From positions 1 through 36,412 of the forward strand of contig CACZTE010000270.1 in NCBI GenBank assembly GCA_902784045.1: DNA of 36,412 nt, written 5' to 3'. Origin of the DNA: an uncultured Eubacterium sp. (GTDB taxonomy: Bacteria > Bacillota > Clostridia > Eubacteriales > Eubacteriaceae). Position numbers and translations under genes: made by a program. Under the pieces are notes generated by a model. That model was not told where the DNA came from, searched no databases, and saw only the letters and a program-made list of their open reading frames with translations. Below, one piece after another: positions 39-36,024 of the stretch; the stretch's first letter is position 1; the number at the start of each line of letters is the position of its first letter.

Positions 39-2366
39 ATGGTAAAATACAAACAGATTGAAAAGCAAAAACAGGCGAAGGGAAGAAAGGCAGGCGACAT
101 GAAAAAAAGCGAGCGAAAAGTCAACAAACACATCACTGCCATCAAAGGGCTCATTGACGGAGAAGAGCTTACCCTGTCCGCCGCGGTGAGCGTCATCATC
201 GCCAAATGGATGATCGATCATAACCTCTCGCCGGATATCCCCGAACGCCTGACTGACAGCCTAAAACGGGGCGAAATTATGCCGCTTGGCGATATCATGG
301 CTTGCTGGGACAGCGTCAGCGCCGGCGATGATTGGGGAGAGAAAAAAACCATCGCCATCAACGGCCGGACAGGCGTTGCCCTTGAGCGCTTTCTTCAAGA
401 GAACAATCTTTTTGCCGGAAAAGACAGCGCCGTCATCGGACTGTTGTACCAAAAACTATTATCCACGGCGCGTAAAAAACAAGGCGGCGTCTTCTACACG
501 CCGCCGGAACTGGCAGCGTTGCTTGCCCGCATGACGGGACCCGCGGAGGGCCGAATGAAAAACCTCGATCCCGCCTGCGGCGGCGGCGCGCTGCTTGCCG
601 CCATGTACGACAAGCTTCGGGCAGATAATCCGGCATTGACGCACAGAGAAATCCTGCGAGACAGACTTTGGGGTATCGACACCGATGCTTTGGCCGTCAT
701 TGTGTGCCGGTCAGTCCTCGCCTTAAAAAGCCAAAACTATGTCTATCCCGAGCACATTCTCCGCGCCGACGCCTTGTTTGACTTACAAACGCCTCAATGT
801 CGTGCTTTTGACCGCGTCATCGCCAATCCGCCCTACATTGGCCACAAAGCCTTAAAAGGCTCCTATATGGACGCCCTCAGGCAAAAATATCCCCGGGTTT
901 ACGGTGACAAAGGCGACATCGCCTACTGCTTTTATCAAAATGCCGTCAATCGCTTAAAAGACGGAGGCATCGCCGCCTTTCTGGTCTCCCGTTATTTCAC
1001 CGAAGCCCAAAACGGGGAAGGCCTGCGTCGGTTTTTAAGTGAAGAAACCCGAATCAAGCAAATCATCGACTACAACGGCGAGCGGGTCATCAAAGGCGTC
1101 GGCATTGATCCCATGATCATCGTCTTTGAAAAACGGGCGGACACGGTCGGAGATATCGACGTGCGCAAACGCGTGATAGAGAACAACACAAAGCGAAAAC
1201 TGTTCTCGAGAGAACCCCTCAGTCACCCTTCGGGTGACAGCTCCCCTTATCAAGGGGAGCCTATTGCCGACGCGTCATTAATCAGTGATTCGAAAGTCGT
1301 CCTTACCGCGCAAAACGATAACCTTGAGAATTTTCAAAAAATAGTTGACACCGCAAGGCGCAAAGACCCCCAACGCCCATCCCGAAAACCCAAACCAAAA
1401 CTCCGCAAAGCAGCGTTTCCACCGCAATCATGCGTTATGCGTCATGCAACATTCACCATTAATCCGGGGGAACAACAGCTTTCCGACAGTGAAATCCTTC
1501 CCGGCGAAGCAAACAAATCCTTCGACTGTTTCACAATTCCCCAATCCTCCCTCGGCGCGGAGCCCTGGCATTTAAACGACCCGATGACACGTCAGATCGT
1601 CGACAAAATACAAGGCGCTTGCGAGAGCACCCTCGGCAGGGAAGGGGAATTCTTTCAGGGAATCATCACCGGCGCCGACGGTGTCTTCGTCATCAAAGAC
1701 GCGCAAAAAGAAGCCCTCAGCGCGTTATCGCCCTATCTGCGCCCATGGATCAAAAACAGCCGGATTCATCCCTGTCTCATCGATAAAAACGGTCTTTATC
1801 TCATCTACGTCCGGGGAAATGAAACCGATATGTCCCCCGAGCTTGTCGATTATCTCGCGCCGCACAAAGAAAGGCTTTCAAAAAGGCGGGAATGCAAAAC
1901 CGGCAGCATCCCATGGTATGCCCTGCAGTGGCCAAGAAAGCCCGAGCTTTTCGACGGGGAAAAAATCATCTTTCCCTACAAAGCCGAAAAAAACCGCTTT
2001 GCCGTTGATGAGGGAGGCCTCTACTTTTCCGCCGATGTCTACGGCTTTATTCCCGGGAAAACCGACGCCAAAGCCCTTTGCGTGCTGCTCAACTCAGCCT
2101 GCTACAACCGCTATTTCAAATCCTACGCCAAAAAGCTCGGCGGCGCCCTCTACGAATACTATCCCAACACCTTAAAAAGATTAGCAATTCCCGAGGCGGA
2201 TGCGTCAATATATTGTGAACTGGCGCCCTATTATGATATAATAAAAACTTCAAATAACGCGGATGAAGCGAAGGAGAGCGCCGAGGCGATCATCGCCGGA
2301 TATTTCGGCCTGAGCGACGCGCAAAAACGACACATCGGAGTCAACTATGCAAAAAAGCTTTTTTGA
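39..2366 (+). CDS. N6-adenine DNA methyltransferase, gamma-class (Eco57I/TaqI-like catalytic domain plus TaqI-like C-terminal target-recognition domain) with a long low-complexity internal insert
   Basis: 775-aa ORF. Contains GGVFYTPPELAALLARM, SAM-binding motif I LDPACGGGALL (Asp codon at 567) and catalytic motif IV NPPY (825-836). The C-terminal FFQGIITGADGVFVI ... IPWYALQWPRKPELF resembles TaqI_C-type specificity domains. No nuclease domain recognised. The start is uncertain (ATG 39 or ATG 99). Confidence 0.8.
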   Translation: MVKYKQIEKQKQAKGRKAGDMKKSERKVNKHITAIKGLIDGEELTLSAAVSVIIAKWMIDHNLSPDIPERLTDSLKRGEIMPLGDIMACWDSVSAGDDWGEKKTIAINGRTGVALERFLQENNLFAGKDSAVIGLLYQKLLSTARKKQGGVFYTPPELAALLARMTGPAEGRMKNLDPACGGGALLAAMYDKLRADNPALTHREILRDRLWGIDTDALAVIVCRSVLALKSQNYVYPEHILRADALFDLQTPQCRAFDRVIANPPYIGHKALKGSYMDALRQKYPRVYGDKGDIAYCFYQNAVNRLKDGGIAAFLVSRYFTEAQNGEGLRRFLSEETRIKQIIDYNGERVIKGVGIDPMIIVFEKRADTVGDIDVRKRVIENNTKRKLFSREPLSHPSGDSSPYQGEPIADASLISDSKVVLTAQNDNLENFQKIVDTARRKDPQRPSRKPKPKLRKAAFPPQSCVMRHATFTINPGEQQLSDSEILPGEANKSFDCFTIPQSSLGAEPWHLNDPMTRQIVDKIQGACESTLGREGEFFQGIITGADGVFVIKDAQKEALSALSPYLRPWIKNSRIHPCLIDKNGLYLIYVRGNETDMSPELVDYLAPHKERLSKRRECKTGSIPWYALQWPRKPELFDGEKIIFPYKAEKNRFAVDEGGLYFSADVYGFIPGKTDAKALCVLLNSACYNRYFKSYAKKLGGALYEYYPNTLKRLAIPEADASIYCELAPYYDIIKTSNNADEAKESAEAIIAGYFGLSDAQKRHIGVNYAKKLF

Positions 2367-3675
2367 TTTGGAATACGAAAAACAAGCGGAAGAGAACGCC
2401 CCGCTAGCGTCCCGTATGCGCCCCACCACCCTGGAGGATTTTGCGGGACAAGGGCACATCGTCGGAAAGGGAAAACTGCTGTCCCGGCTCATCGCCGCCG
2501 ACAGGCTCACCTCCGCCATTTTCTACGGGCCGCCGGGTACGGGAAAAACCACCCTCGCCGGCATCATCGCCCATCAGACCAAAGCGGCCTTTCACGTGCT
2601 CAACGCCGTCACCGCCGGTAAAAAAGACATCGAGAACGTCATTGCCATGGCCAGGGAAAACATCGGCGTCTACCGGCGAAAAACCATTCTCTTCATCGAT
2701 GAAATTCACCGCTTTAACAAAGCCCAGCAGGACGCCTTGCTGCCAAGCGTTGAAAAAGGCGACATCATCTTAATCGGCGCCACCACGGAAAATCCCTATT
2801 TCGAGATCAATCCCGCGCTGGTCTCCCGCTCCACTGTTTTTGAGTTTAAACGCCTGGAAGCGGAGGATATCAGACAAATTCTGGACAGCGCCCTCAAAGA
2901 CAAAGAAAAAGGCTACGGCGGCATGAACGTCGTCCTCACCGACGAGGCCGCGGAACACCTGTGCAGCGTCGCCGCCGGGGACGTCAGGAAAGCCTTAAAC
3001 GCCTTGGAACTGGCCGTGCTTACCGGGGAAAAAAACGAAAAAGGGGAGATCATAATCGACCTTGACGCCGCCACCGAGTGCATTCAAACCAAGGCCCTGC
3101 AATACGATAAAAAAGGCGATAATCACTACGACACCATTTCCGCCTTTATCAAAAGCATTCGGGGCTCGGATCCCGACGCGGCGCTGTTTTGGATGGCCAA
3201 AATGCTCGACGCCGGGGAAGACCCCAAATTTATCGCCAGACGCATGGTCATCGCCGCTTCCGAGGACATCGGCAACGCCAATCCGATGGGGTTGGTGGTC
3301 GCCGTTTCCGCCGCCAGAGCCGTCGAGATGATCGGCTTGCCCGAGGCGCGCATCAATCTGGCCCAGGCCGTCACCTATTTGGCGGTGTCCCCCAAAAGCA
3401 ACGCGGCGATCATGGGCATCGACGCGGCATCCGAGGCTGTCAGGCACCGCTCCGACGGCAAAGTGCCCGCCCATCTGCGCGACAGCCATTACCGGGGAAG
3501 CGAAGCCCTGGGCAGGGGTGTCGATTACCGCTATCCCCATAACTATCCCGGCGGCTATGTGGCCCAGCAATATTTGCCCGACGATATCAAAGACGACACC
3601 TTTTATCACCCGACGGACCACGGCAGCGAAAAAGCCATCGCCGAACGCTTATCGCGGTTAAAAAACACGAAATAA
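2347..3675 (+). CDS. rarA: Replication-associated recombination protein A (AAA+ ATPase, MgsA/RarA)
   Basis: 442 aa. N-terminal PLASRMRPTTLEDFAGQ, Walker A GPPGTGKTT, Walker B LFIDEIHRF, and the conserved C-terminal MgsA domain (DALFWMAKML..GEDP.FIARR, HLRDSHY). The start overlaps the upstream stop by 20 nt. Confidence 0.95.
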   Translation: MQKSFFDLEYEKQAEENAPLASRMRPTTLEDFAGQGHIVGKGKLLSRLIAADRLTSAIFYGPPGTGKTTLAGIIAHQTKAAFHVLNAVTAGKKDIENVIAMARENIGVYRRKTILFIDEIHRFNKAQQDALLPSVEKGDIILIGATTENPYFEINPALVSRSTVFEFKRLEAEDIRQILDSALKDKEKGYGGMNVVLTDEAAEHLCSVAAGDVRKALNALELAVLTGEKNEKGEIIIDLDAATECIQTKALQYDKKGDNHYDTISAFIKSIRGSDPDAALFWMAKMLDAGEDPKFIARRMVIAASEDIGNANPMGLVVAVSAARAVEMIGLPEARINLAQAVTYLAVSPKSNAAIMGIDAASEAVRHRSDGKVPAHLRDSHYRGSEALGRGVDYRYPHNYPGGYVAQQYLPDDIKDDTFYHPTDHGSEKAIAERLSRLKNTK

Positions 3676-3716: not shown

Positions 3717-6638
3717 TTGCAAATCAACGAAACACATAACGGATTCGTTTTAAAAGATAAACAGGACATCGCCGAATTCAACGCGACGGCCTACGTGTTT
3801 GAATATGAACAGACGGGAACGCCGGTGATCTACTTAAGTTGTCCGGACGCCAACAAAGTCTTTCAAATCGCCTTTCGCACCCCCAATGCCAAAAGCACGG
3901 GCGTGGCCCATATCCTTGAGCATTCGGTGCTCTGCGGTTCCCGCAAATACCCGGTCAAAGAGCCCTTTGTGGAGCTGGCCAAAGGCTCAATGAACACCTT
4001 CTTAAATGCCATGACCTATCCCGATAAAACCGTCTATCCCATCGCCAGCACCAACGACAAAGATTTCATGAACCTGATGGACGTTTATCTCGACGCCGTG
4101 TTTTATCCCGATATCGACAAAAAGCCCGAGATTTTCCTGCAGGAAGGCTGGCATTATCACCTTGAGAAAGAAGACGATCCGCTGACCTACAACGGCGTCG
4201 TCTACAACGAAATGAAAGGTGTCTATTCCGATCCCGAACAGGTCATCTCCCAGGATGTCTACGAAGCCCTCTATCCCGAGAGCGTCTACGGCTTTGAGTC
4301 CGGCGGCCATCCCGATGACATTCCGAGTCTTTCGTACCGGGATTTTCTCAATTTCCACCACACCTATTATCATCCCTCCAACGCCTTTGTCTATTTTTAC
4401 GGAAACGGCGATATCAAAACCCATCTCGACTATCTGGCGGACAACTATCTCTCGGCGTTTTACTATCACAGAGTTGACAGCGCCATCGCGCTTCAGCCGC
4501 CCTTTGACGCGCCTGTCCGCATTGAGAGCGTCTATCCCGTGTCTCCCGAGGAAAGCGAGGATGCGAAAGATTACATCGCCTACGGCTGGATTCTCGGCGC
4601 CGACCTGCCTTTTGAAAAACGCTTAGCCTTCGATATCCTCTTTAACGTGCTGCTCGGCAACGACAGCGCGCCGCTTAAAAAAGCCATTTTGGATCTGGGC
4701 GTTTGCGAGGACGTCGATTATTCCTATGTGACGGCCCTCAGACAGCCGAGCCTGACCTTGCTTCTGAAAAACGCCGACAGCGGCAAAGAAGAACTGCTCA
4801 CCAAAACCATCCGAGAAACCTTGGCGCGCCTGGCGGAAGAGGGGCTTGACGCCGCCGACGTGGACGCCGCCGTCAGTTCCGCTCTGTTCACTTTAAGAGA
4901 ACAGGAATTCGGCACCACGCCCAAGGGATTGATCCTCGGTCTTGAAATGCTCGAAAGCCAGCTTTACGGGGGAAATCCTCTCACACATCTGAGCTATGAA
5001 AAAGCGATGGCCTCCGTCAAAGATTCCGCGGAGCACGGCGGTCTTGAAGCCCTAATCGCGGACTGCTTGCTGGCAAATCCCCACAGCGTGACTCTCATCT
5101 CAAAACCCGACGGCGACCTGGCGCCCAATCAGGCCAAAGCCCTTGCGGACAAACTCGCCGAGCACAAACAAAATCTCACCGACGAAGCCAAAGCCAGTAT
5201 CATCCGTCAGACCGCGCGCCTCAAAGCCTATCAGGAAAAACCCGATTCTCCGGAAGCGTTGGCCACCATTCCCAAACTCGCTCTGTCGGAGATTGACAGA
5301 AAAGCCAAAGCCTATCCCTACGAAACAGAGGAAATCGCCGGGATAAAACTGCTTTGGCATCCCTTGTCCACCGAAGGCATCACCTATATCAAGCTGTATT
5401 TCGACGCGGCATACGTCAAGCCGGAGGACATGGCGGCGCTCTCATTGTTCAACAAATACCTGTTCCGTCTCGGCACGGGAAAGCGCGGCGTCACCGAATT
5501 AAACCGGGATATCGACACTGATACCGGCGGCATTTCAAGCGGCCTTTCGGTCTATCCCGATGTCTCCGATCCCGACGCCTTTTCCACCATGCTCCTCATC
5601 AAAGGAAAAGCCCTCGACGCTAATGTCGAGAAAATGATCGACATCATCGAGGACGTCCTCACGGACACCCGTTTTGACGACACGGCGCTGATGACCAATA
5701 TCAACCGGGAACTCGCCTTGACTTTCGAAAACAAAATCCTCACCGCCGGCAACGCTCTGGCGACGAACAGGCTCAAGGCCTATTATTCGCCGGTAGGCTG
5801 TGAATCCCAACGAATCGGCGGTCTGGATTTTTACCGCTATGTCAAAAACCTGCCGGAATTTGACAGCCGGGACGCAGGGGAGCTCATCGCTTCGCTTTCG
5901 CGCGTCTATCATCAAATCATCCGGACGCCGCGCCTCACGGTCAGCCTTGCCTGCGCGCCGTCACAAAAACAGCGGGCTGTGAAGGCCTTAAATGACCTTC
6001 TTAACAAACTGCCCGGAGACGACGCCGACATCTTTGCCCGTAACTACACACCCCTTCGCCAAAACGAAGGCATTATGACGCCGTCAAAAATCAATTACGC
6101 CGCTAAGGGCTTCAATCTCGCTCGCTTAGGCTACCGCTATGACGGGTCTCTCTGTGTCCTCAAAAACTTCCTGGCGATGGATTATCTGTGGAACAATATC
6201 CGCGTTAAAGGCGGGGCATACGGCGCCGGCATGGCATTAAACCGCTCCGGAGACATCGTCTTTTCATCTTTCAGAGATCCCCACGTGGGGGGCACTTTCG
6301 CCGCTTTTGACGGTGTCGGCGCTTATTTAAAAACGCTTTCCCTCTCCGAAAGAGAGCTTGAAAAACAGATCATCGGCACTGTATCCGCCAAGGATGTGCC
6401 GGTATCCGAAGCACTGACGGCCGCCGCCGCCGATTCCATGGTTTTCACAGGTCTCACTCAGGAAATGATACAGCGGGAGAGAGACGAAATCCTCGGAACC
6501 ACCGTTGACGATTTAAAAGACAAAGCGGAATTGATGGATGCCCTGATGGCCGAGAACACCCTTTGCGCCATTGGCAGTGAAGCAAAAATCAAAGAAAACG
6601 GAGAACTATTCGATGCGCTCATTACGATCTATGAATAA
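3717..6638 (+). CDS. M16-family (insulinase/PreP-like, M16C) zinc metallopeptidase
   Basis: 973 aa. Inverted zinc motif HxxEH (AHILEHSVLCGS). The length and layout match PreP-like M16C peptidases. TTG start at 3717 is preceded by AAAGGAGAG (3701-3709). Confidence 0.88.
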   Translation: MQINETHNGFVLKDKQDIAEFNATAYVFEYEQTGTPVIYLSCPDANKVFQIAFRTPNAKSTGVAHILEHSVLCGSRKYPVKEPFVELAKGSMNTFLNAMTYPDKTVYPIASTNDKDFMNLMDVYLDAVFYPDIDKKPEIFLQEGWHYHLEKEDDPLTYNGVVYNEMKGVYSDPEQVISQDVYEALYPESVYGFESGGHPDDIPSLSYRDFLNFHHTYYHPSNAFVYFYGNGDIKTHLDYLADNYLSAFYYHRVDSAIALQPPFDAPVRIESVYPVSPEESEDAKDYIAYGWILGADLPFEKRLAFDILFNVLLGNDSAPLKKAILDLGVCEDVDYSYVTALRQPSLTLLLKNADSGKEELLTKTIRETLARLAEEGLDAADVDAAVSSALFTLREQEFGTTPKGLILGLEMLESQLYGGNPLTHLSYEKAMASVKDSAEHGGLEALIADCLLANPHSVTLISKPDGDLAPNQAKALADKLAEHKQNLTDEAKASIIRQTARLKAYQEKPDSPEALATIPKLALSEIDRKAKAYPYETEEIAGIKLLWHPLSTEGITYIKLYFDAAYVKPEDMAALSLFNKYLFRLGTGKRGVTELNRDIDTDTGGISSGLSVYPDVSDPDAFSTMLLIKGKALDANVEKMIDIIEDVLTDTRFDDTALMTNINRELALTFENKILTAGNALATNRLKAYYSPVGCESQRIGGLDFYRYVKNLPEFDSRDAGELIASLSRVYHQIIRTPRLTVSLACAPSQKQRAVKALNDLLNKLPGDDADIFARNYTPLRQNEGIMTPSKINYAAKGFNLARLGYRYDGSLCVLKNFLAMDYLWNNIRVKGGAYGAGMALNRSGDIVFSSFRDPHVGGTFAAFDGVGAYLKTLSLSERELEKQIIGTVSAKDVPVSEALTAAAADSMVFTGLTQEMIQRERDEILGTTVDDLKDKAELMDALMAENTLCAIGSEAKIKENGELFDALITIYE

Positions 6639-8004
6639 ACATATTGTTTCATTATTCATTGTTCTGGCAATCACGCTGGGCTTTCCGGGCGCCGCTTTCG
6701 CGGCGATGCCGTCTTTCAGCGGCGATCAAGCGATTTATCTCGTCGACGAAAAAACCGGAACCGTCCTCGTTGACCAAAACGGTGAAGAAAAATTCTATCC
6801 GGCGAGCACCACCAAAATGCTCACCACCCTGGTCGCCCTCGATTATGTCGCCGACAAAATGGACACCAAAGTGACCGTCGGCGATGAGGTGAACATGGTC
6901 AGCACCGACAGTTCTCTGGCGGAGATCAAACAAGGCGAATCCCTCACCTGGAAAGAGCTGTTTTACGGCATGCTTCTGCCCTCGGGCAACGACGCTGCCA
7001 TCACCATATCCGTCAATGTGGCGCGGATGGCCACCGGCAACAACAATTTGTCCAACGAGGAAGCCGTCAAGCGATTTGTCGAAATGATGAACGAAAAAGC
7101 CGACGAAATGGGATGCGAAACTTACAATTTCGTCAATCCCCACGGCCTTCACGACGACAATCATTACATGACGGCCAAAGATATGTACATCATTTCTCAC
7201 GAAGTCCTCAAAAACAGCGATATCGCGCAAATCGTCAAATCCCCGACTTACAGCCATCAAACCACGACGCCCAACGCCCGCCCCTGGCGAAACACCAATT
7301 TCCTCGTTGTCGATAACGGCAGCGCGGCGCTGTATCCCGACGTCTACGAAAACGGGCAAAATCCTCTGTACAACAAAGAAGCCACCGGCGTCAAAACAGG
7401 CTTTACCGATCAAGCCGGCAGATGTCTTGTTTTTTCGGCGAATACCGATGGCAAAAATCTGCTCGGCATTATCTATAAAGCCGCCGATAACGACGTGCTC
7501 TACGGCCAGGCCAATGAGGTCATTGAATCCCTGAAAAACGATTATAAACAGGTCACCTGGACCGACGAATACAACCAAATGCCCGCTGTCAAGGTGAAGG
7601 GCAACCACTTCTTCGATGGCAACAGCTTAAAGCTCTCAACGGGAAACGCCGCGTCTTCCACCGTGCTCAAAGATAAAGAATCCCAGTATTCCACAAGTAT
7701 CACCCTTAATGATACAACGCTTGAAAAAGTGGACGACGAAACCTATAAAGTTCGCGCCGACATTAAAGAAGGCGATGAAATCGGAAAACTCGACGTCAAA
7801 TTTAACGGTAAAGATTACCAGAGCTTTCCGATTTACGCCGGCAACAAAATGCGTCAGCGCAACATTGTCGACTTCCTATTCTGGGCATTGATTGTTATCC
7901 TGATTATCGCCTTCATCGTATTGGCCAGACTCTATTTTGTTTCCAGAAAAAATAAAACCGGAAAAGGCGCAGCGCATTCCGGAAAACGAAAAAAACGACT
8001 ATAA
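6631..8004 (+). CDS. D-alanyl-D-alanine carboxypeptidase (serine peptidase S11, low-MW PBP) with signal peptide and C-terminal transmembrane anchor
   Basis: The in-frame ATG at 6631 gives MNKHIVSLFIVLAITLGFPGAAFA, a signal peptide. Catalytic motifs are SxxK (ASTTKML), SxN (PSGND) and KTG (VKTGFT). The C-terminal hydrophobic helix FLFWALIVILIIAFIVLARLYF is followed by a basic tail. The 6571 start in the ORF track lies inside the upstream gene and is unlikely. Confidence 0.9.
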   Translation: MNKHIVSLFIVLAITLGFPGAAFAAMPSFSGDQAIYLVDEKTGTVLVDQNGEEKFYPASTTKMLTTLVALDYVADKMDTKVTVGDEVNMVSTDSSLAEIKQGESLTWKELFYGMLLPSGNDAAITISVNVARMATGNNNLSNEEAVKRFVEMMNEKADEMGCETYNFVNPHGLHDDNHYMTAKDMYIISHEVLKNSDIAQIVKSPTYSHQTTTPNARPWRNTNFLVVDNGSAALYPDVYENGQNPLYNKEATGVKTGFTDQAGRCLVFSANTDGKNLLGIIYKAADNDVLYGQANEVIESLKNDYKQVTWTDEYNQMPAVKVKGNHFFDGNSLKLSTGNAASSTVLKDKESQYSTSITLNDTTLEKVDDETYKVRADIKEGDEIGKLDVKFNGKDYQSFPIYAGNKMRQRNIVDFLFWALIVILIIAFIVLARLYFVSRKNKTGKGAAHSGKRKKRL

Positions 8005-9206
8005 TGAAAAAATCATCAGAATTACTGGCATTGCCGGGGGACAATGAAAAACTGAAAGCCGCTATCGGTGACGAAGCGGCGTACATCGTCGACGAAAAAA
8101 CCGGAACAGTCCTCGCTGACCAAAACGCCGATAAAAAGTACTACCCGGCCAGCACCACCAAAATCTTGACCACCCTTGTCGCTCTCGATTACGTTGCCGA
8201 TAAAATGGACACCAGGGTAACCGTTGGCGATGAATTGGACATGCTCGATCCCGAGAGCTCCCTGGCGGAAATCGAGCAAGGCGAATCCCTGACTTGGAAA
8301 GAACTGTTTTACGGCATGCTTCTGCCCTCCGGCTGTGATGCTGCCCTCACGATAGCCGTCAATGTGGCCCGAATGGCAGCTGACAACCAACATTTATCCA
8401 ACGAAGAGGCGATCAAGCGTTTTGCCGAGATGATGAATGAAAAAGCTGATGAAATGGGGTGCAAAAACTACAATTTTGTCAATCCCCACGGCATTCATGA
8501 TGACAATCACTATATTTCGGCCAAAGACATGTACATCATTGCTCATGAAACGCTCAAAAACAAGGATATTGCCCAAATCGTCAAAACCCCGGTCTACAGC
8601 CGGCAAACCGCCACCCTCGGCATCTATCATTGGCAGACCACCAACTATCTCATTTTTGATAGCGAAAGCGCCGCTTTGTATTCAGACATTTTCGAAAACG
8701 GGCATAATCCTCAGTACAACCAAGACGCCACCGGCGTCAAAACCGGTTTTACCATCCCGGCCGGCAGATGTCTTGTCTTTTCGGCAAAGGCGGATGACAA
8801 AAAGATTCTGGGCGTCATCTTCAATGCCCCCAGCAACGCCGTGCTCTACACCCAGGCTAACAATGTGATTGAATCGCTGAAAAACGATTATCAACATGTC
8901 ACATGGACCGATGAAAACCATCAATTGCCGTCTGTCAAAGTAAGGGACAATCACTTTTCAGAAGGCAATTACCTCAAACTCTTCACAGGAAAAGCCGCCG
9001 CGTCTACCGTGCTCAAAGAAAAAGCATCCCGGTATTCGCCAAGGGTCACCCTTAATAACAGTCTGCTTGAGAAAGTGGACGATCAGACTTACAAAGTCCT
9101 TAAAGCAATCAAAGAAGGCGATGAAATCGGAAGCTTAGACATCGAAATCGACGGCATAATTTATCAATGCTTTCCCATCTACGCCGGCAACAAAATGCGT
9201 CCGTAA
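8004..9206 (+). CDS. DD-carboxypeptidase (S11) paralog with a chimeric N-terminus; no signal peptide, no membrane anchor, SxN changed to SxC
   Basis: 400 aa, about three-quarters identical by eye to the mature part of the upstream paralog. SxxK (ASTTKIL) and KTG (VKTGFT) are kept, but PSGND has become PSGCD. The first ~21 codons resemble the 5' end of the U32 gene at 9331. The start ATG overlaps the upstream TAA (TAATG). Confidence 0.85.
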   Translation: MKKSSELLALPGDNEKLKAAIGDEAAYIVDEKTGTVLADQNADKKYYPASTTKILTTLVALDYVADKMDTRVTVGDELDMLDPESSLAEIEQGESLTWKELFYGMLLPSGCDAALTIAVNVARMAADNQHLSNEEAIKRFAEMMNEKADEMGCKNYNFVNPHGIHDDNHYISAKDMYIIAHETLKNKDIAQIVKTPVYSRQTATLGIYHWQTTNYLIFDSESAALYSDIFENGHNPQYNQDATGVKTGFTIPAGRCLVFSAKADDKKILGVIFNAPSNAVLYTQANNVIESLKNDYQHVTWTDENHQLPSVKVRDNHFSEGNYLKLFTGKAAASTVLKEKASRYSPRVTLNNSLLEKVDDQTYKVLKAIKEGDEIGSLDIEIDGIIYQCFPIYAGNKMRP

Positions 9207-9330
9207 AATCATATTGACTTCTTGTTCCGGATTAAGATTTTTCTTTTTTCGTCCGGGTCGGGTGTACTTTGTGTCAAGCAGTCACAAAAAAGATAAGGCA
9301 CGGCGCATTCTGGAAAAGGAACAGACTATC
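9207..9330 (+). pseudogene. Decayed remnant of the duplicated carboxypeptidase membrane-anchor coding segment
   Basis: It aligns at nucleotide level with 7858-8003, the TM anchor and basic tail of the first paralog. Frame shift 1 of the remnant reads ..RVYFVSSSHKKDKARRILEKEQTI, against RLYFVSRKNKTGKGAAHSGKRKKRL in the first paralog. A premature TAA at 9204-9206 and indels separate it from the second paralog body. Confidence 0.55.
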
Positions 9331-11715
9331 ATGAAAAAAATACCAGAATTACTGGCGCCGGCGGGGGACAAAGAAAGCGTGAGAGCTGCCTTAGCCGCCG
9401 GCGCCGACGCGGTTTATTTCGGGGGAAACCTCTTTAACGCGCGGATGAAAGCCAAAAACTTTGACCTCGACGCCATGGCGGAAATCATCGCGATCTGCCA
9501 CCAAAACGGCGTGAAATGCTATCTGACCTTAAATACCCTTATCATGCAAAGCGAGTGGCAGGCCCTCACGGAATACGTCGCCGACATCTCGGATATCGGA
9601 CTGGACGGTGTGATCGTTCAGGATCCCGGTTTGATTTGGTATCTCAGAACCTGTTATCCGGAGCTTTCCCTGCAGACCAGCACCCAGGCGTCTTTAGGGG
9701 GGCTTCCCGGCGCGCGTTTTTTTGAGAAACTTGGCTTCAAACGGGTGGTTCTCCCCAGGGAAATGCCCCTCGATGAGGTCAAAACCATCTCTGAAAATAC
9801 AGAAGTGGAAATCAAAATCTTCAATCACGGCGCCATGTGCTATTGCCGTTCGGGACAGTGTCTGATGAGCTCGCTCATCGGCGGGCGAAGCGGCAACCGG
9901 GGACTGTGCGCCCAGCCCTGCCGAAAAAAATACGCCCTTATCACCGAGGACGGCGAAAAACCCTACGCCTATCGGCTCTCCATGAAAGATTTAAACACGG
10001 TCTTTCATCTGCCAGAGATGATCGACGCCGGGGTGGACGCCCTTAAAATCGAAGGGCGTCTCAAAAGCCCTGAGTATATCTACAGCGTCGTCAAAGCCTA
10101 CAGAGAAGCCATCGACACCGCGACAGACGGGAAGACAAGTTCGAAAGATGAAAAAAACCTCAAAGACGCCTCCAGGGAAATGGCGGCGGTGTTTCATCGC
10201 GGCTTTACCGCAGGCCGGCTGTTTGGGAAATACGACGTCATCAACCCGACGATTCAAAAGCATTACGGTCTTCTCATCGGAACGGTCAAAAGCTGTGCGC
10301 GAGGCCGCCTAACCATTGCGCTCTCACCGGGCGTCACTCTCACGCCCGGCGATGGCCTGGCTTTTGGAAAGACAGCCGATATCGGCACGCGGGTAGATAA
10401 AATCATTTCGTCGCGGGGCGGTGAAGCTGTCATACCCGTCAGAATTCACGTGCGCAAAGGTGAGAAGGTCTACCGCAATTTTGATATGGCCCTCAGCGAA
10501 ACCATACAAAAACGCGTCGAAACGGCGCCTGTTAAAACCAAAATTCCCGCGGAATTAAATCTGATATTCAAGGAAAACTGTGCCGTAAAATACCGGGTGA
10601 AAACAGCAGAGCATCTCCTCAAGGGAGAAATTTCCGAAATCATTCCGGGACACGCCCAAAACAGACCGCTTAACGAAGAGCTTATTACAGCGCAAATGAC
10701 AAAAACAGGAGAGAGTTTCTACCGGTTTTCCGCAATCACGGCGGATATTGAAGGTGAGCCCTTCCTGTCCAAAAAAGAACTCAACATCGTCAGGCGTGAG
10801 ATTCTCGCGAGACTGGAAGAGAAAAAACAGGCATCGGAAAACATGCCGGATTTCATATTGGAGAAACCTTACCGCGCCTTTAAAAAGTCTGCTATCGCCG
10901 TCAATTTTCTCACAAAAGAAGAATTTTTACGGCTTTATCCGCTTAGCGCTGACGAGTGGATTTTTCCGTTTGAAAGTCCCCGGGATATTCCCGTCATCAA
11001 GTCTTTCATTGAGCGGCTTCACCGGGACAAAAAGCGGGCGGTTCTCGCCTTTCCCCAGGTGCTTACCACCGGAGCCTGCGCCGCTTTTGAAGCGTGTTTT
11101 GACGATATTCTGGCGCTCAATCCCGACGGTTTTTTAGCCCGCAATTACGAGACCCTGGCCATTCTTACCAAGCGGGGCATTCATCCCGAAATCGACGCGA
11201 CAATGCACGTCACTAACGCCGTTTCTGCAGGCGCCTTTAAAACTTGGGGAGCCTCTGCCGTCACCATGTCCGTCGAAACCCAACGTGACAATGTCAAAGC
11301 CGTCATCGACAAAAGCCCGCTGCCCGTCACCATTATCGTCTACGGCAGGCAGCAGATGATGATCTCCGATCATTGCCTTTTGGACTGCGAGGTCAAACAT
11401 TGCGCGTCCTGCGTAAAACAAGGCGCCTTTACCCTCAAAGATGAGCGGGGCGCACGGTTTCCGGGATACAAAGGCGCCGACGGTATGACGCGGATTTTCA
11501 ATTCTGCCGTATTAAAACTCACGCAAAAGGATTTGCGGGATGTCAAAGGAGCGGCGAAATACCGCCTCGACGTCACTGACGAATCCAAAGACCAAATGAG
11601 CGCGGTAATCGCCGAACTCACGGCTGAGGCAAACAAACATAACGGCGCGTTGCCCGCCGCCAATCAATCAAACAATCAATTTACCAAAGGAAATTATTAC
11701 AGGGGTGTGAAGTGA
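9331..11715 (+). CDS. U32-family protein, long form (annotated peptidase U32/collagenase-like; conserved Cys clusters)
   Basis: 794 aa starting at MKKIPELLAPAGD, the typical U32 N-terminus. Also has GADAVYFGG, the conserved CYCRSGQC ... GNRGLCAQPCR motif, and a C-terminal CLLDCEVKHCASC cluster. GGAAAAGGAA lies upstream of ATG 9331. The TTG-9214 extension in the ORF track is the decayed duplicate tail. Confidence 0.85.
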   Translation: MKKIPELLAPAGDKESVRAALAAGADAVYFGGNLFNARMKAKNFDLDAMAEIIAICHQNGVKCYLTLNTLIMQSEWQALTEYVADISDIGLDGVIVQDPGLIWYLRTCYPELSLQTSTQASLGGLPGARFFEKLGFKRVVLPREMPLDEVKTISENTEVEIKIFNHGAMCYCRSGQCLMSSLIGGRSGNRGLCAQPCRKKYALITEDGEKPYAYRLSMKDLNTVFHLPEMIDAGVDALKIEGRLKSPEYIYSVVKAYREAIDTATDGKTSSKDEKNLKDASREMAAVFHRGFTAGRLFGKYDVINPTIQKHYGLLIGTVKSCARGRLTIALSPGVTLTPGDGLAFGKTADIGTRVDKIISSRGGEAVIPVRIHVRKGEKVYRNFDMALSETIQKRVETAPVKTKIPAELNLIFKENCAVKYRVKTAEHLLKGEISEIIPGHAQNRPLNEELITAQMTKTGESFYRFSAITADIEGEPFLSKKELNIVRREILARLEEKKQASENMPDFILEKPYRAFKKSAIAVNFLTKEEFLRLYPLSADEWIFPFESPRDIPVIKSFIERLHRDKKRAVLAFPQVLTTGACAAFEACFDDILALNPDGFLARNYETLAILTKRGIHPEIDATMHVTNAVSAGAFKTWGASAVTMSVETQRDNVKAVIDKSPLPVTIIVYGRQQMMISDHCLLDCEVKHCASCVKQGAFTLKDERGARFPGYKGADGMTRIFNSAVLKLTQKDLRDVKGAAKYRLDVTDESKDQMSAVIAELTAEANKHNGALPAANQSNNQFTKGNYYRGVK

Positions 11716-21867: not shown

Positions 21868-21944
21868 CGGGGTGTGGCTCAGTTTGGTAGAGCGCATGGT
21901 TCGGGACCATGAGGCCGGAGGTTCAAATCCTCTCACTCCGACCA
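21868..21944 (+). tRNA. tRNA-Pro (anticodon CGG), CCA encoded
   Basis: Manual cloverleaf: acceptor CGGGGTG/CACTCCG (with G4-U69), D arm GCTC/GAGC, anticodon stem CATGG/CCATG, loop TTCGGGA, T arm GGAGG-TTCAAAT-CCTCT, discriminator A, CCA. Confidence 0.93.
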
Positions 21945-35838: not shown

Positions 35839-35928
35839 GCGAGGATGGTGAAATTGGCAGACACGCAGGTTTGAGGGACCTGTTGCTAACATACAGCAGT
35901 GAGGGTTCGAATCCCTTTCCTCGCACCA
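35839..35928 (+). tRNA. tRNA-Leu (anticodon GAG), long variable arm, CCA encoded
   Basis: Manual fold: acceptor GCGAGGA/TCCTCGC, anticodon stem CAGGT/ACCTG, loop TTGAGGG, long variable arm, T arm GAGGG-TTCGAAT-CCCTT. 90 nt. Confidence 0.92.
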
Positions 35929-35949: not shown

Positions 35950-36024
35950 GCGGAAGTGGCTCAGTGGTAGAGCATCGCCTTGCCAAGGCGAGGGTCGCGA
36001 GTTCAAATCTCGTCTTCCGCTCCA
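35950..36024 (+). tRNA. tRNA-Gly (anticodon GCC), CCA encoded
   Basis: Manual fold: acceptor GCGGAAG/CTTCCGC, anticodon stem TCGCC/GGCGA, loop TTGCCAA, T arm GCGAG-TTCAAAT-CTCGT. 75 nt. Confidence 0.93.

Follow-up and report, generated by a model that had tools for sequence, protein, structure and literature searches.

A tandem duplication gave an uncultured Eubacterium a chimeric S11 peptidase gene that has moved between species and whose product is predicted to be cytoplasmic

The dac locus and the birth of a chimera

Our subject is a gene in a 36,412-nucleotide contig of an uncultured Eubacterium sp. (CACZTE010000270.1 of assembly GCA_902784045.1; the whole contig is what we call the window), where two neighbouring genes of the S11 family of DD-carboxypeptidases, dac copy 1 and dac copy 2, sit between a PreP-like M16C peptidase gene and a U32-family peptidase-like gene, with MutS2 beyond. 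Copy 1 is full-length, with a Sec signal peptide, the catalytic motifs STTK, SGN and KTG, a PBP5_C domain and a C-terminal transmembrane anchor (we take its start as the ATG at 6613, an earlier reading made from the sequence alone having used the ATG at 6631), and protein P0003 is near-identical to it. Copy 2 is a chimera that originated by tandem duplication; it has lost the export and anchoring signals, it is constrained at the protein level, its second catalytic motif is of the type found in the Streptomyces K15 DD-transpeptidase, and it has spread horizontally. Taken as a whole, our reading is that this duplication-born, selected and spreading gene encodes a cytoplasmic acyl-serine DD-peptidase that acts on precursors ending in D-Ala-D-Ala, and we hold to it with moderate confidence.

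The duplication, which the sequence-only reading had proposed with two head-to-tail units, is plainly visible in a global nucleotide alignment of 6560-8100 against 7950-9450 and in the accompanying protein alignment. Homology is continuous from about 6721 and 8067 via the dac bodies and the anchor region into the start of the next gene, and between 6721-7854 and 8067-9200 there are 378 codons without a single gap (copy 1 residues 31-408 against copy 2 residues 22-399), with 72% of the amino acids and about 78% of the nucleotides identical. The head of copy 2, in turn, comes from the U32 gene: 8004-8057 and 9331-9384 are identical, ungapped, at 42 of 54 nucleotides, a score that, over the 72,716 positions on the two strands of the window, is otherwise reached only by the query itself. 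The junction in copy 2 (KAAI/GDEAAY, spanned for example by the peptide LKAAIGDEAAYIVDEK) falls six residues past the copy 1 cleavage site AFA/A and about 21 codons into U32, just where the two breakpoints had been placed. Microhomology between U32 GADAVY and dac GDQAIY leaves the exact breakpoint ambiguous over U32 codons 21-29, and it is probably this similar stretch that guided the illegitimate recombination.

The fusion also brought a ready-made start. As had been noted from the letters, the stop codon of copy 1 overlaps the start codon of copy 2 (TAATG, 8002-8006), and since the dac stops of the outgroups likewise abut or overlap the U32 start (TAAATG, ATGA), the proposal that the initiation context of copy 2 was taken over from U32 is supported. 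Between lineages A and C, described below, the U32-derived head has a non-synonymous divergence (dN) of 0.20 and a synonymous divergence (dS) of 0.20; the head peptide evolves approximately neutrally and matters only as a start. A scan for promoters and terminators gave about the number of matches expected by chance.

Relatives of the locus differ in arrangement. A protein search returned chimeric proteins at 99%, 93% and 85% identity to copy 2, copy 1 orthologues at 64-72% and outgroups at about 50%, and both arrangements for which the sequence-only reading had suggested a search of related genomes, the ancestral single-copy one and the chimeric one, were recovered. The order PreP-dac1-dac2-U32-MutS2 occurs in lineage A (the window and a second contig, L266), in lineage B (L081-L088 and L092) and in lineage C (L085), where copy 2 is 296 residues long, a deletion having taken its C-terminal domain and the anchor remnant. 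At L085 5396-5466, ahead of U32, lineage C has a short out-of-frame scrap as a leftover (LKNDDKHVT, a stop, then TDEYHQIPIV). Single-copy PreP-dac-U32-MutS2 is found in the outgroups L089 and L091 and also in genome D (RGIG2333, L186), a metagenome-assembled Eubacteriaceae genome from goat ileum that is the closest GTDB species representative (PolA 84% identical) and was found by an alignment-based GTDB scan; a scan of GTDB with exact copy 2 peptides gave nothing closer than 40%, and one of JGI metagenomes added a further lineage-B contig and nothing else. In a more distant relative, the Logan contig L267, U32 is called as two open reading frames (ORFs) of 272 and 508 residues at 4430-6771, where the sister contigs L268 and L269 have one 780-residue gene; the split reflects a frameshift allele or else a mistake in assembly.

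Table 1. Features of the dac locus, in window coordinates
Feature	Position	Strand	Remark
PreP-like M16C peptidase gene	3717..6638	+	upstream of dac copy 1
dac copy 1, full-length S11 DD-carboxypeptidase, 463 aa	6613..8004	+	Pfam Peptidase_S11 155 bits, PBP5_C
Sec signal peptide of copy 1, MNKHIVSLFIVLAITLGFPGAAFA	6631-6702	+	
Duplication unit 1: mature dac body, anchor, U32-type start region heading copy 2	6721..8066	+	alignments
Transmembrane anchor and Lys/Arg-rich cytoplasmic tail of copy 1, IVDFLFWALIVILIIAFIVLARLYFVSRKNKTGKGAAHSGKRKKRL	7876..8001	+	
Cassette exchanged between species: copy 1 anchor, whole copy 2, spacer, first ~22 U32 codons	7887..9397	+	identity profile
dac copy 2, chimeric gene, 400 aa, S11 catalytic and PBP5_C domains	8004..9206	+	Pfam S11 148.4 bits
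U32-derived head of copy 2, 21 codons, MKKSSELLALPGDNEKLKAAI	8004..8066	+	supplies start codon
Duplication unit 2: copy 2 dac body, decayed anchor, true U32 start region	8067..9393	+	alignments
Motif 1, S50-T-T-K53 (nucleophile Ser, general-base Lys)	8151..8162	+	
Motif 2, S109-G-C111 (TCC GGC TGT)	8328..8336	+	
Motif 3, K246-T-G248	8739..8747	+	
In-frame TAA replacing the Arg codon after KMRP in copy 2	9204..9206	+	codon-level reading
Decayed copy 2 anchor remnant, non-coding spacer ahead of U32	9207..9330	+	homology to 7858-8003
U32-family peptidase-like gene, 794 aa, Peptidase_U32 and DUF3656	9331..11715	+	Pfam 284 bits

Active site, fold and predicted location

Copy 2 matches Peptidase_S11 (PF00768) at 148.4 bits against a cut-off of 27.6, over positions 9-238 of the 239 in the profile, and PBP5_C at 23.8 bits against 21.2, and its Pfam matches are limited to S11, S13, beta-lactamase and PBP5_C. 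An AlphaFold model of the protein has a mean predicted local distance difference test (pLDDT) of 94.2 and a predicted template-modelling score (pTM) of 0.91, the U32-derived head scoring a pLDDT of 44-73, with residues 1-13 at low confidence and a short helix at 15-21. Searched with Foldseek, it shows the two-domain fold, catalytic plus C-terminal beta-sandwich, of the penicillin-binding proteins (PBPs) PBP5 and PBP6 (TM-scores 0.7-0.83), and among its structural matches the Streptomyces K15 DD-transpeptidase, aligned over the catalytic domain, has the highest sequence identity (28-29%, with a TM-score of 0.85-0.87 when normalised to target length).

The catalytic motifs are as the sequence-only reading had described them. 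S50-T-T-K53 and K246-T-G248 are retained and fall in invariant columns of a 92-sequence family alignment, and the motif 2 Asn codon AAC has become the Cys codon TGT (8334-8336), so that the family's Ser-x-Asn reads Ser-Gly-Cys in every copy 2 protein of the three lineages. Asn occupies this position in 110 of the 120 best homologues, among which Cys is confined to the copy 2 clade, and in 98% of the non-copy-2 sequences of the 92-sequence alignment. Overall, copy 2 retains 54 of 58 well-conserved family positions; N111C, T172S and N212T, all at positions at least 97% conserved, are specific to its clade and fixed in all three lineages.

For the Cys there is a precedent. The stretch LPSGCDAA of copy 2 aligns in HMMER with the LPSGCDAA of K15 (1esi, 1skf), which is also the second-best match in a sequence search of the PDB, where structures of the K15 mutants C98A (1ES3) and C98N (1ES4) are deposited. 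Copy 2 branches from within Eubacteriaceae dac genes that have Asn, as do copy 1 and all of the outgroups, so that the Cys of copy 2 is convergent with that of K15; on this comparison, Ser-Gly-Cys is a known active variant that was reached independently. In K15, Cys98 is said to take over the role of the Asn, and its replacement by Asn reportedly gives less transpeptidation and more hydrolysis.

These observations bear directly on the idea that copy 2 is a cytoplasmic, non-catalytic pseudoenzyme that binds D-Ala-D-Ala-ended precursors or some other ligand. Pseudoenzymes usually lack the nucleophile or the general base, but Ser50, Lys53, Ser109 and KTG are present in all lineages, together with the bulk of the conserved family positions. 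A further point against the reading is that the K15 DD-transpeptidase, an active enzyme, naturally has Ser-Gly-Cys as its motif 2. We therefore consider a pseudoenzyme unlikely, even though three near-invariant family positions have changed, the motif 2 Asn among them, selection on copy 2 is relaxed relative to copy 1, and the natural polymer substrate would be absent from the new compartment.

As regards that compartment, S11 PBPs are textbook extracytoplasmic enzymes. In copy 1, the Kyte-Doolittle profile peaks at 3.33 at the N-terminus and at 3.37 at residues 422-437, whereas the maximum 15-residue mean in copy 2 is 1.5, in line with the earlier claim that both signal peptide and anchor are gone. 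Inspection of the copy 2 sequence and its hydropathy revealed no signal peptide, Tat motif, lipobox or transmembrane segment, and we found no in-frame extension upstream of 8004. The head is acidic, and the low model confidence suggests that residues 1-13 are disordered. Among the 120 best homologues, the copy 2 clade alone is leaderless; P0066 at first looked like a second leaderless S11 protein, which proved to be an artefact of the start call, an upstream TTG start giving it a normal signal peptide. The product of copy 2 thus probably stays in the cytoplasm.

The anchor was lost through an in-frame TAA, shared by lineages A and B, that stands in place of the Arg codon after KMRP. A gapped nucleotide alignment had suggested a 2-bp deletion at the end of copy 2, which the codon-level reading rejects. 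Beyond the TAA, the remnant first reads NHIDFLFR (NIVDFLFW in copy 1), then shifts frame, and part of the transmembrane core is missing. Lineage B has the same TAA with different indels, those of the remnant being lineage-specific, and because the adjoining 400-codon ORF has none, the remnant is to be seen as decaying neutral DNA. Within lineage A, the spacer at 9207-9330 differs between the window and L266 at 8 of 124 nucleotides and is the fastest-evolving stretch of the locus, the neighbouring genes having 7.5-14 differences per kb and copy 2 having 7.5.

Copy 2 could of course work outside the cell, released by non-classical export, lysis or sporulation, as a soluble K15-like DD-transpeptidase or a DD-carboxypeptidase on peptidoglycan. 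K15, which acts on the wall, is synthesised with a leader, and a full PBP5-like fold with an intact active site and a motif known from a wall-acting enzyme would suit such a role. On the other hand, every export feature that we looked for is missing behind an acidic head of low model confidence, and all other close homologues keep their leader. In addition, first the anchor and then the stalk, which in PBP5-type enzymes position the protein at the membrane surface, have been lost or relaxed, as is expected of a cytoplasmic protein because surface positioning would no longer matter to it. Action outside the cell is, in our opinion, distinctly improbable.

Selection on copy 2 and exchange between species

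A long open frame had been taken earlier as a sign of selection on copy 2, and the divergence of the two paralogues in the window is in agreement (dN 0.167, dS 0.813, dN/dS or omega 0.21). Comparison of copy 2 orthologues goes further and rejects a decaying pseudogene, with pairwise NG86 estimates of omega of 0.24 between lineages A and B (confidence interval 0.13-0.42) and 0.15 between A and C (0.10-0.23). Because synonymous sites are saturated towards the outgroups, codon branch models were fitted to the six ingroup genes only, from several starting points, and gave an omega of 0.08 for copy 1, 0.18 for copy 2 and 0.23 for the connecting branch, omega = 1 being rejected for copy 2 with a doubled log-likelihood difference (2dlnL) of 89.7. 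The copy 2 ORF is under purifying selection that is concentrated on the catalytic domain: the omega there is 0.13-0.18, the branch to the truncated copy included (omega = 1 rejected, 2dlnL 27.6), and in the C-terminal domain it is 0.45, not distinguishable from 1, so the stalk looks dispensable.

Such constraint is hard to square with a copy 2 that is a non-functional by-product, whether a young duplicate or an untranslated ORF, recent or hitch-hiking. One might point to the missing Shine-Dalgarno sequence, to genome D, in which the gene is dispensable, to the truncated copy in one lineage and to the two lineage A contigs, whose copy 2 genes differ by 5 non-synonymous and 4 synonymous changes. 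Yet the rejection of omega = 1 holds overall and on the branch of the truncated lineage itself, a paralogue dS of 0.81 has gone by with no indel or stop in 378 codons against the indels of the adjoining 124-nt remnant, and Cys111, Ser172 and Thr212 are fixed in three lineages, so that this explanation is already disfavoured and strikes us as very unlikely. That copies 1 and 2 form one fusion protein by frameshifting or stop readthrough, with an S11 domain outside, a transmembrane helix and an S11 domain inside, is barely credible: a -1 slip on the A7 run just before the copy 1 stop (A AAA AAA, 7989-7995) would take ribosomes into the frame of copy 2 without an intervening stop, but this arrangement is not conserved, lineage B having copy 2 in frame with copy 1 behind a TAA (TAAATG) and lineage C lacking the run.

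The cassette that holds copy 2 has a history of its own. As a yardstick for the divergence of the flanks we used, for example, the PreP-like gene, a neighbour kept in single-copy and duplicated arrangements alike. In a sliding-window comparison of lineages A and B, identity is about 95% between about 7890 and about 9400, on a background of about 75-80%; copy 2 has a dS of 0.13 where the flanking genes have 0.86-1.2, with amino-acid identities of 77% (PreP), 70% (U32) and 84% (MutS2). Between lineages A and C, the dS is 0.42 for copy 2 and 0.8-0.95 for the flanks. In both comparisons copy 2 therefore coalesces more recently than the genomes that host it. Genome D is nearly identical to lineage B in PreP (99.3% at the amino-acid level), U32 (98.6%) and MutS2 (99.7%), with a dS of about 0.05. 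Their alignment stays at 98-100% until the copy 1 anchor begins (window equivalent 7886; L086 9346) and again from about U32 codon 23 (window equivalent 9398; L086 10862). Since genome D has an intact and divergent anchor of its own, it was lineage B that gained an A-like cassette and not genome D that lost one. The A-B tract, whose flanks are about 78% identical, together with a near-identical genome that lacks the cassette, means that a cassette of about 1.5 kb moves between related species by homologous recombination. This spread, like the dispensability of the C-terminal domain, lies beyond what the sequence-only reading had claimed; the structural and evolutionary claims that it did make were all borne out.

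The right cassette boundary in lineage B (window 9385-9398; L086 10850-10862) lies at most about 10 nt from the right breakpoint of the original duplication, and both are inside a GC-rich, highly conserved stretch of U32, GCCGCCGGCGCCGACGCGGT; recombination may have a hotspot there, or the two may coincide by chance. For lineage C copy 2, whose identity profile had hinted at a recombination mosaic, a uniform dS of 0.41-0.43 led us to reject one, the low 5' identity reflecting a high dN in the head. In trees built from the protein and from first and second codon positions, copy 2 branches as the sister of the copy 1 genes as a whole at 92-99% support, and third positions give only 26-58% for copy 1 monophyly; in dS, copy 2 is nearest to the copy 1 gene of lineage A.

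Elsewhere in the window, positions 39-3675 hold a gene for a 775-residue fusion of N6-adenine methylase, Eco57I and TaqI_C domains, resembling type IIG/IIL restriction-modification enzymes, which overlaps the start of a RarA/MgsA AAA+ gene, and the pair lies upstream of PreP in all relatives, outgroups included. About 830 nt at 30233-31067, between a DUF2344 gene and an NAD-dependent epimerase gene, contain no ORF of at least 120 codons and no Rfam family at the gathering threshold; the sole Rfam matches in the window are three tRNA genes (21868-21941, 35839-35925 and 35950-36021).

A predicted DD-peptidase in the cytoplasm

The history starts from an ancestral PreP-dac-U32-MutS2 operon in an uncultured lineage of gut Eubacteriaceae, in which a stretch that began just past the point of dac signal-peptide cleavage and ended near codon 21 of U32 was duplicated. 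At the junction, a new gene acquired the U32 start codon and the stop/start coupling along with a mature S11 DD-peptidase body, after which a nonsense mutation cut off the membrane anchor, leaving a remnant that decayed into the spacer before U32. The chimera has stayed intact in three lineages while N111C, T172S and N212T became fixed and the C-terminal stalk was relaxed and, once, lost. Transfer of the cassette involved one crossover in the dac anchor and another in the conserved 5' end of U32, and as a result, some members of a species have the gene and others do not.

With regard to function, we infer from sequence features that copy 2 is made by translation coupled to that of copy 1 and would be a soluble, catalytically competent acyl-serine enzyme of the cytoplasm. 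Its likely substrates there would be molecules with D-Ala-D-Ala ends, namely UDP-MurNAc-pentapeptide, inward-facing lipid intermediates and imported muropeptides. By trimming or exchanging the terminal D-Ala, it could shift the balance of pentapeptide and tetrapeptide among the wall precursors. A cytoplasmic PBP-fold enzyme, as the sequence-only reading had suggested, is plausible.

Several points weigh against this reading. No recognisable Shine-Dalgarno sequence was found ahead of 8004, so that translation of copy 2 would depend on coupling to copy 1, and its selection is about twice as relaxed as that of copy 1, equal omegas being rejected with a 2dlnL of 12.8; the recent polymorphism of copy 2 in lineage A, with five amino-acid changes in nine differences, is relatively rich in such changes. 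Copy 2 is known from no more than three lineages, in one of which it is truncated, and genome D does without the gene. A K15-type Cys reportedly accompanies poor hydrolysis, in which case copy 2 may catalyse something other than simple carboxypeptidase trimming. The sequence may also be compatible with non-classical export, and a cytoplasmic S11 enzyme that consumes UDP-MurNAc-pentapeptide could be harmful to the cell.

Comparison with known systems helps to place the gene. Copy 2 descends directly from a gene of the PBP5/PBP6 type, copy 1, and shares the S11 family, the two-domain fold, SxxK and KTG with class C low-molecular-mass PBPs such as E. coli DacA and DacC and B. subtilis DacA and DacB; unlike them it has neither signal peptide nor anchor (hence the predicted cytoplasmic location), carries Ser-Gly-Cys, takes its N-terminus from an unrelated gene and has a relaxed stalk. 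With K15 (1SKF) it shares the family and the motif 2 context, and the 296-residue protein of lineage C approaches the single-domain size of that enzyme, but its Cys arose independently and lineages A and B keep the C-terminal domain. Like other chimeric genes born of tandem duplication, it has a 5' end and a body from two different genes and thereby gains a ready-made start and expression context; what sets it apart is that the fusion strips an export signal, which would relocate an extracytoplasmic enzyme, and that it then spread across species by way of conserved flanks. Copy 2 is therefore a variant of the known S11 family and not a new kind of system. No cytoplasmic S11 PBP maintained by selection came to light among the 120 best homologues or in a limited literature search, which likewise found no leaderless or cytoplasmic PBPs.

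To judge from predicted location, the nearest functional analogue of copy 2 may be DdcY of Enterococcus faecium, a metallo-enzyme of sporadic distribution that trims UDP-MurNAc-pentapeptide and thereby feeds LD-transpeptidases (PMC4161250). In Clostridioides difficile, too, high DD-carboxypeptidase activity shapes the dependence on LD-transpeptidases (PMC13344953). The enterococcal enzymes DdcY and VanY, which remove D-Ala5 from UDP-MurNAc-pentapeptide and are accessory and sporadic within species, offer a functional analogy only: they are zinc metallopeptidases of family M15, to which copy 2 has no Pfam match and no homology, and its own DD-peptidase activity is predicted. As a tentative and rather doubtful extension of our reading, we suggest that a cytoplasmic serine DD-peptidase might remodel the D-Ala-D-Ala terminus of UDP-MurNAc-pentapeptide or lipid-linked precursors, either cutting it back to tetrapeptide or swapping its last residue, and that the benefit might explain the spread of the cassette among gut Eubacteriaceae.

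If this were true, the serine PBP fold would be carrying out D-Ala-D-Ala precursor chemistry inside the cell, away from most exposure to beta-lactams, cross-linking would shift towards LD-transpeptidases, and susceptibility to glycopeptides and beta-lactams would be altered. Copy 2 is of value for two reasons: a PBP has, by prediction, been relocated to the cytoplasm, and the birth and spread of a gene are clearly recorded. Indeed, the locus is an unusually clean record of bacterial gene birth, in which each step can be read in living sequences, from the borrowed start codon and the stripped signal peptide, via the nonsense mutation and decay of the anchor, to the fixed active-site changes and the spread of the gene between species.

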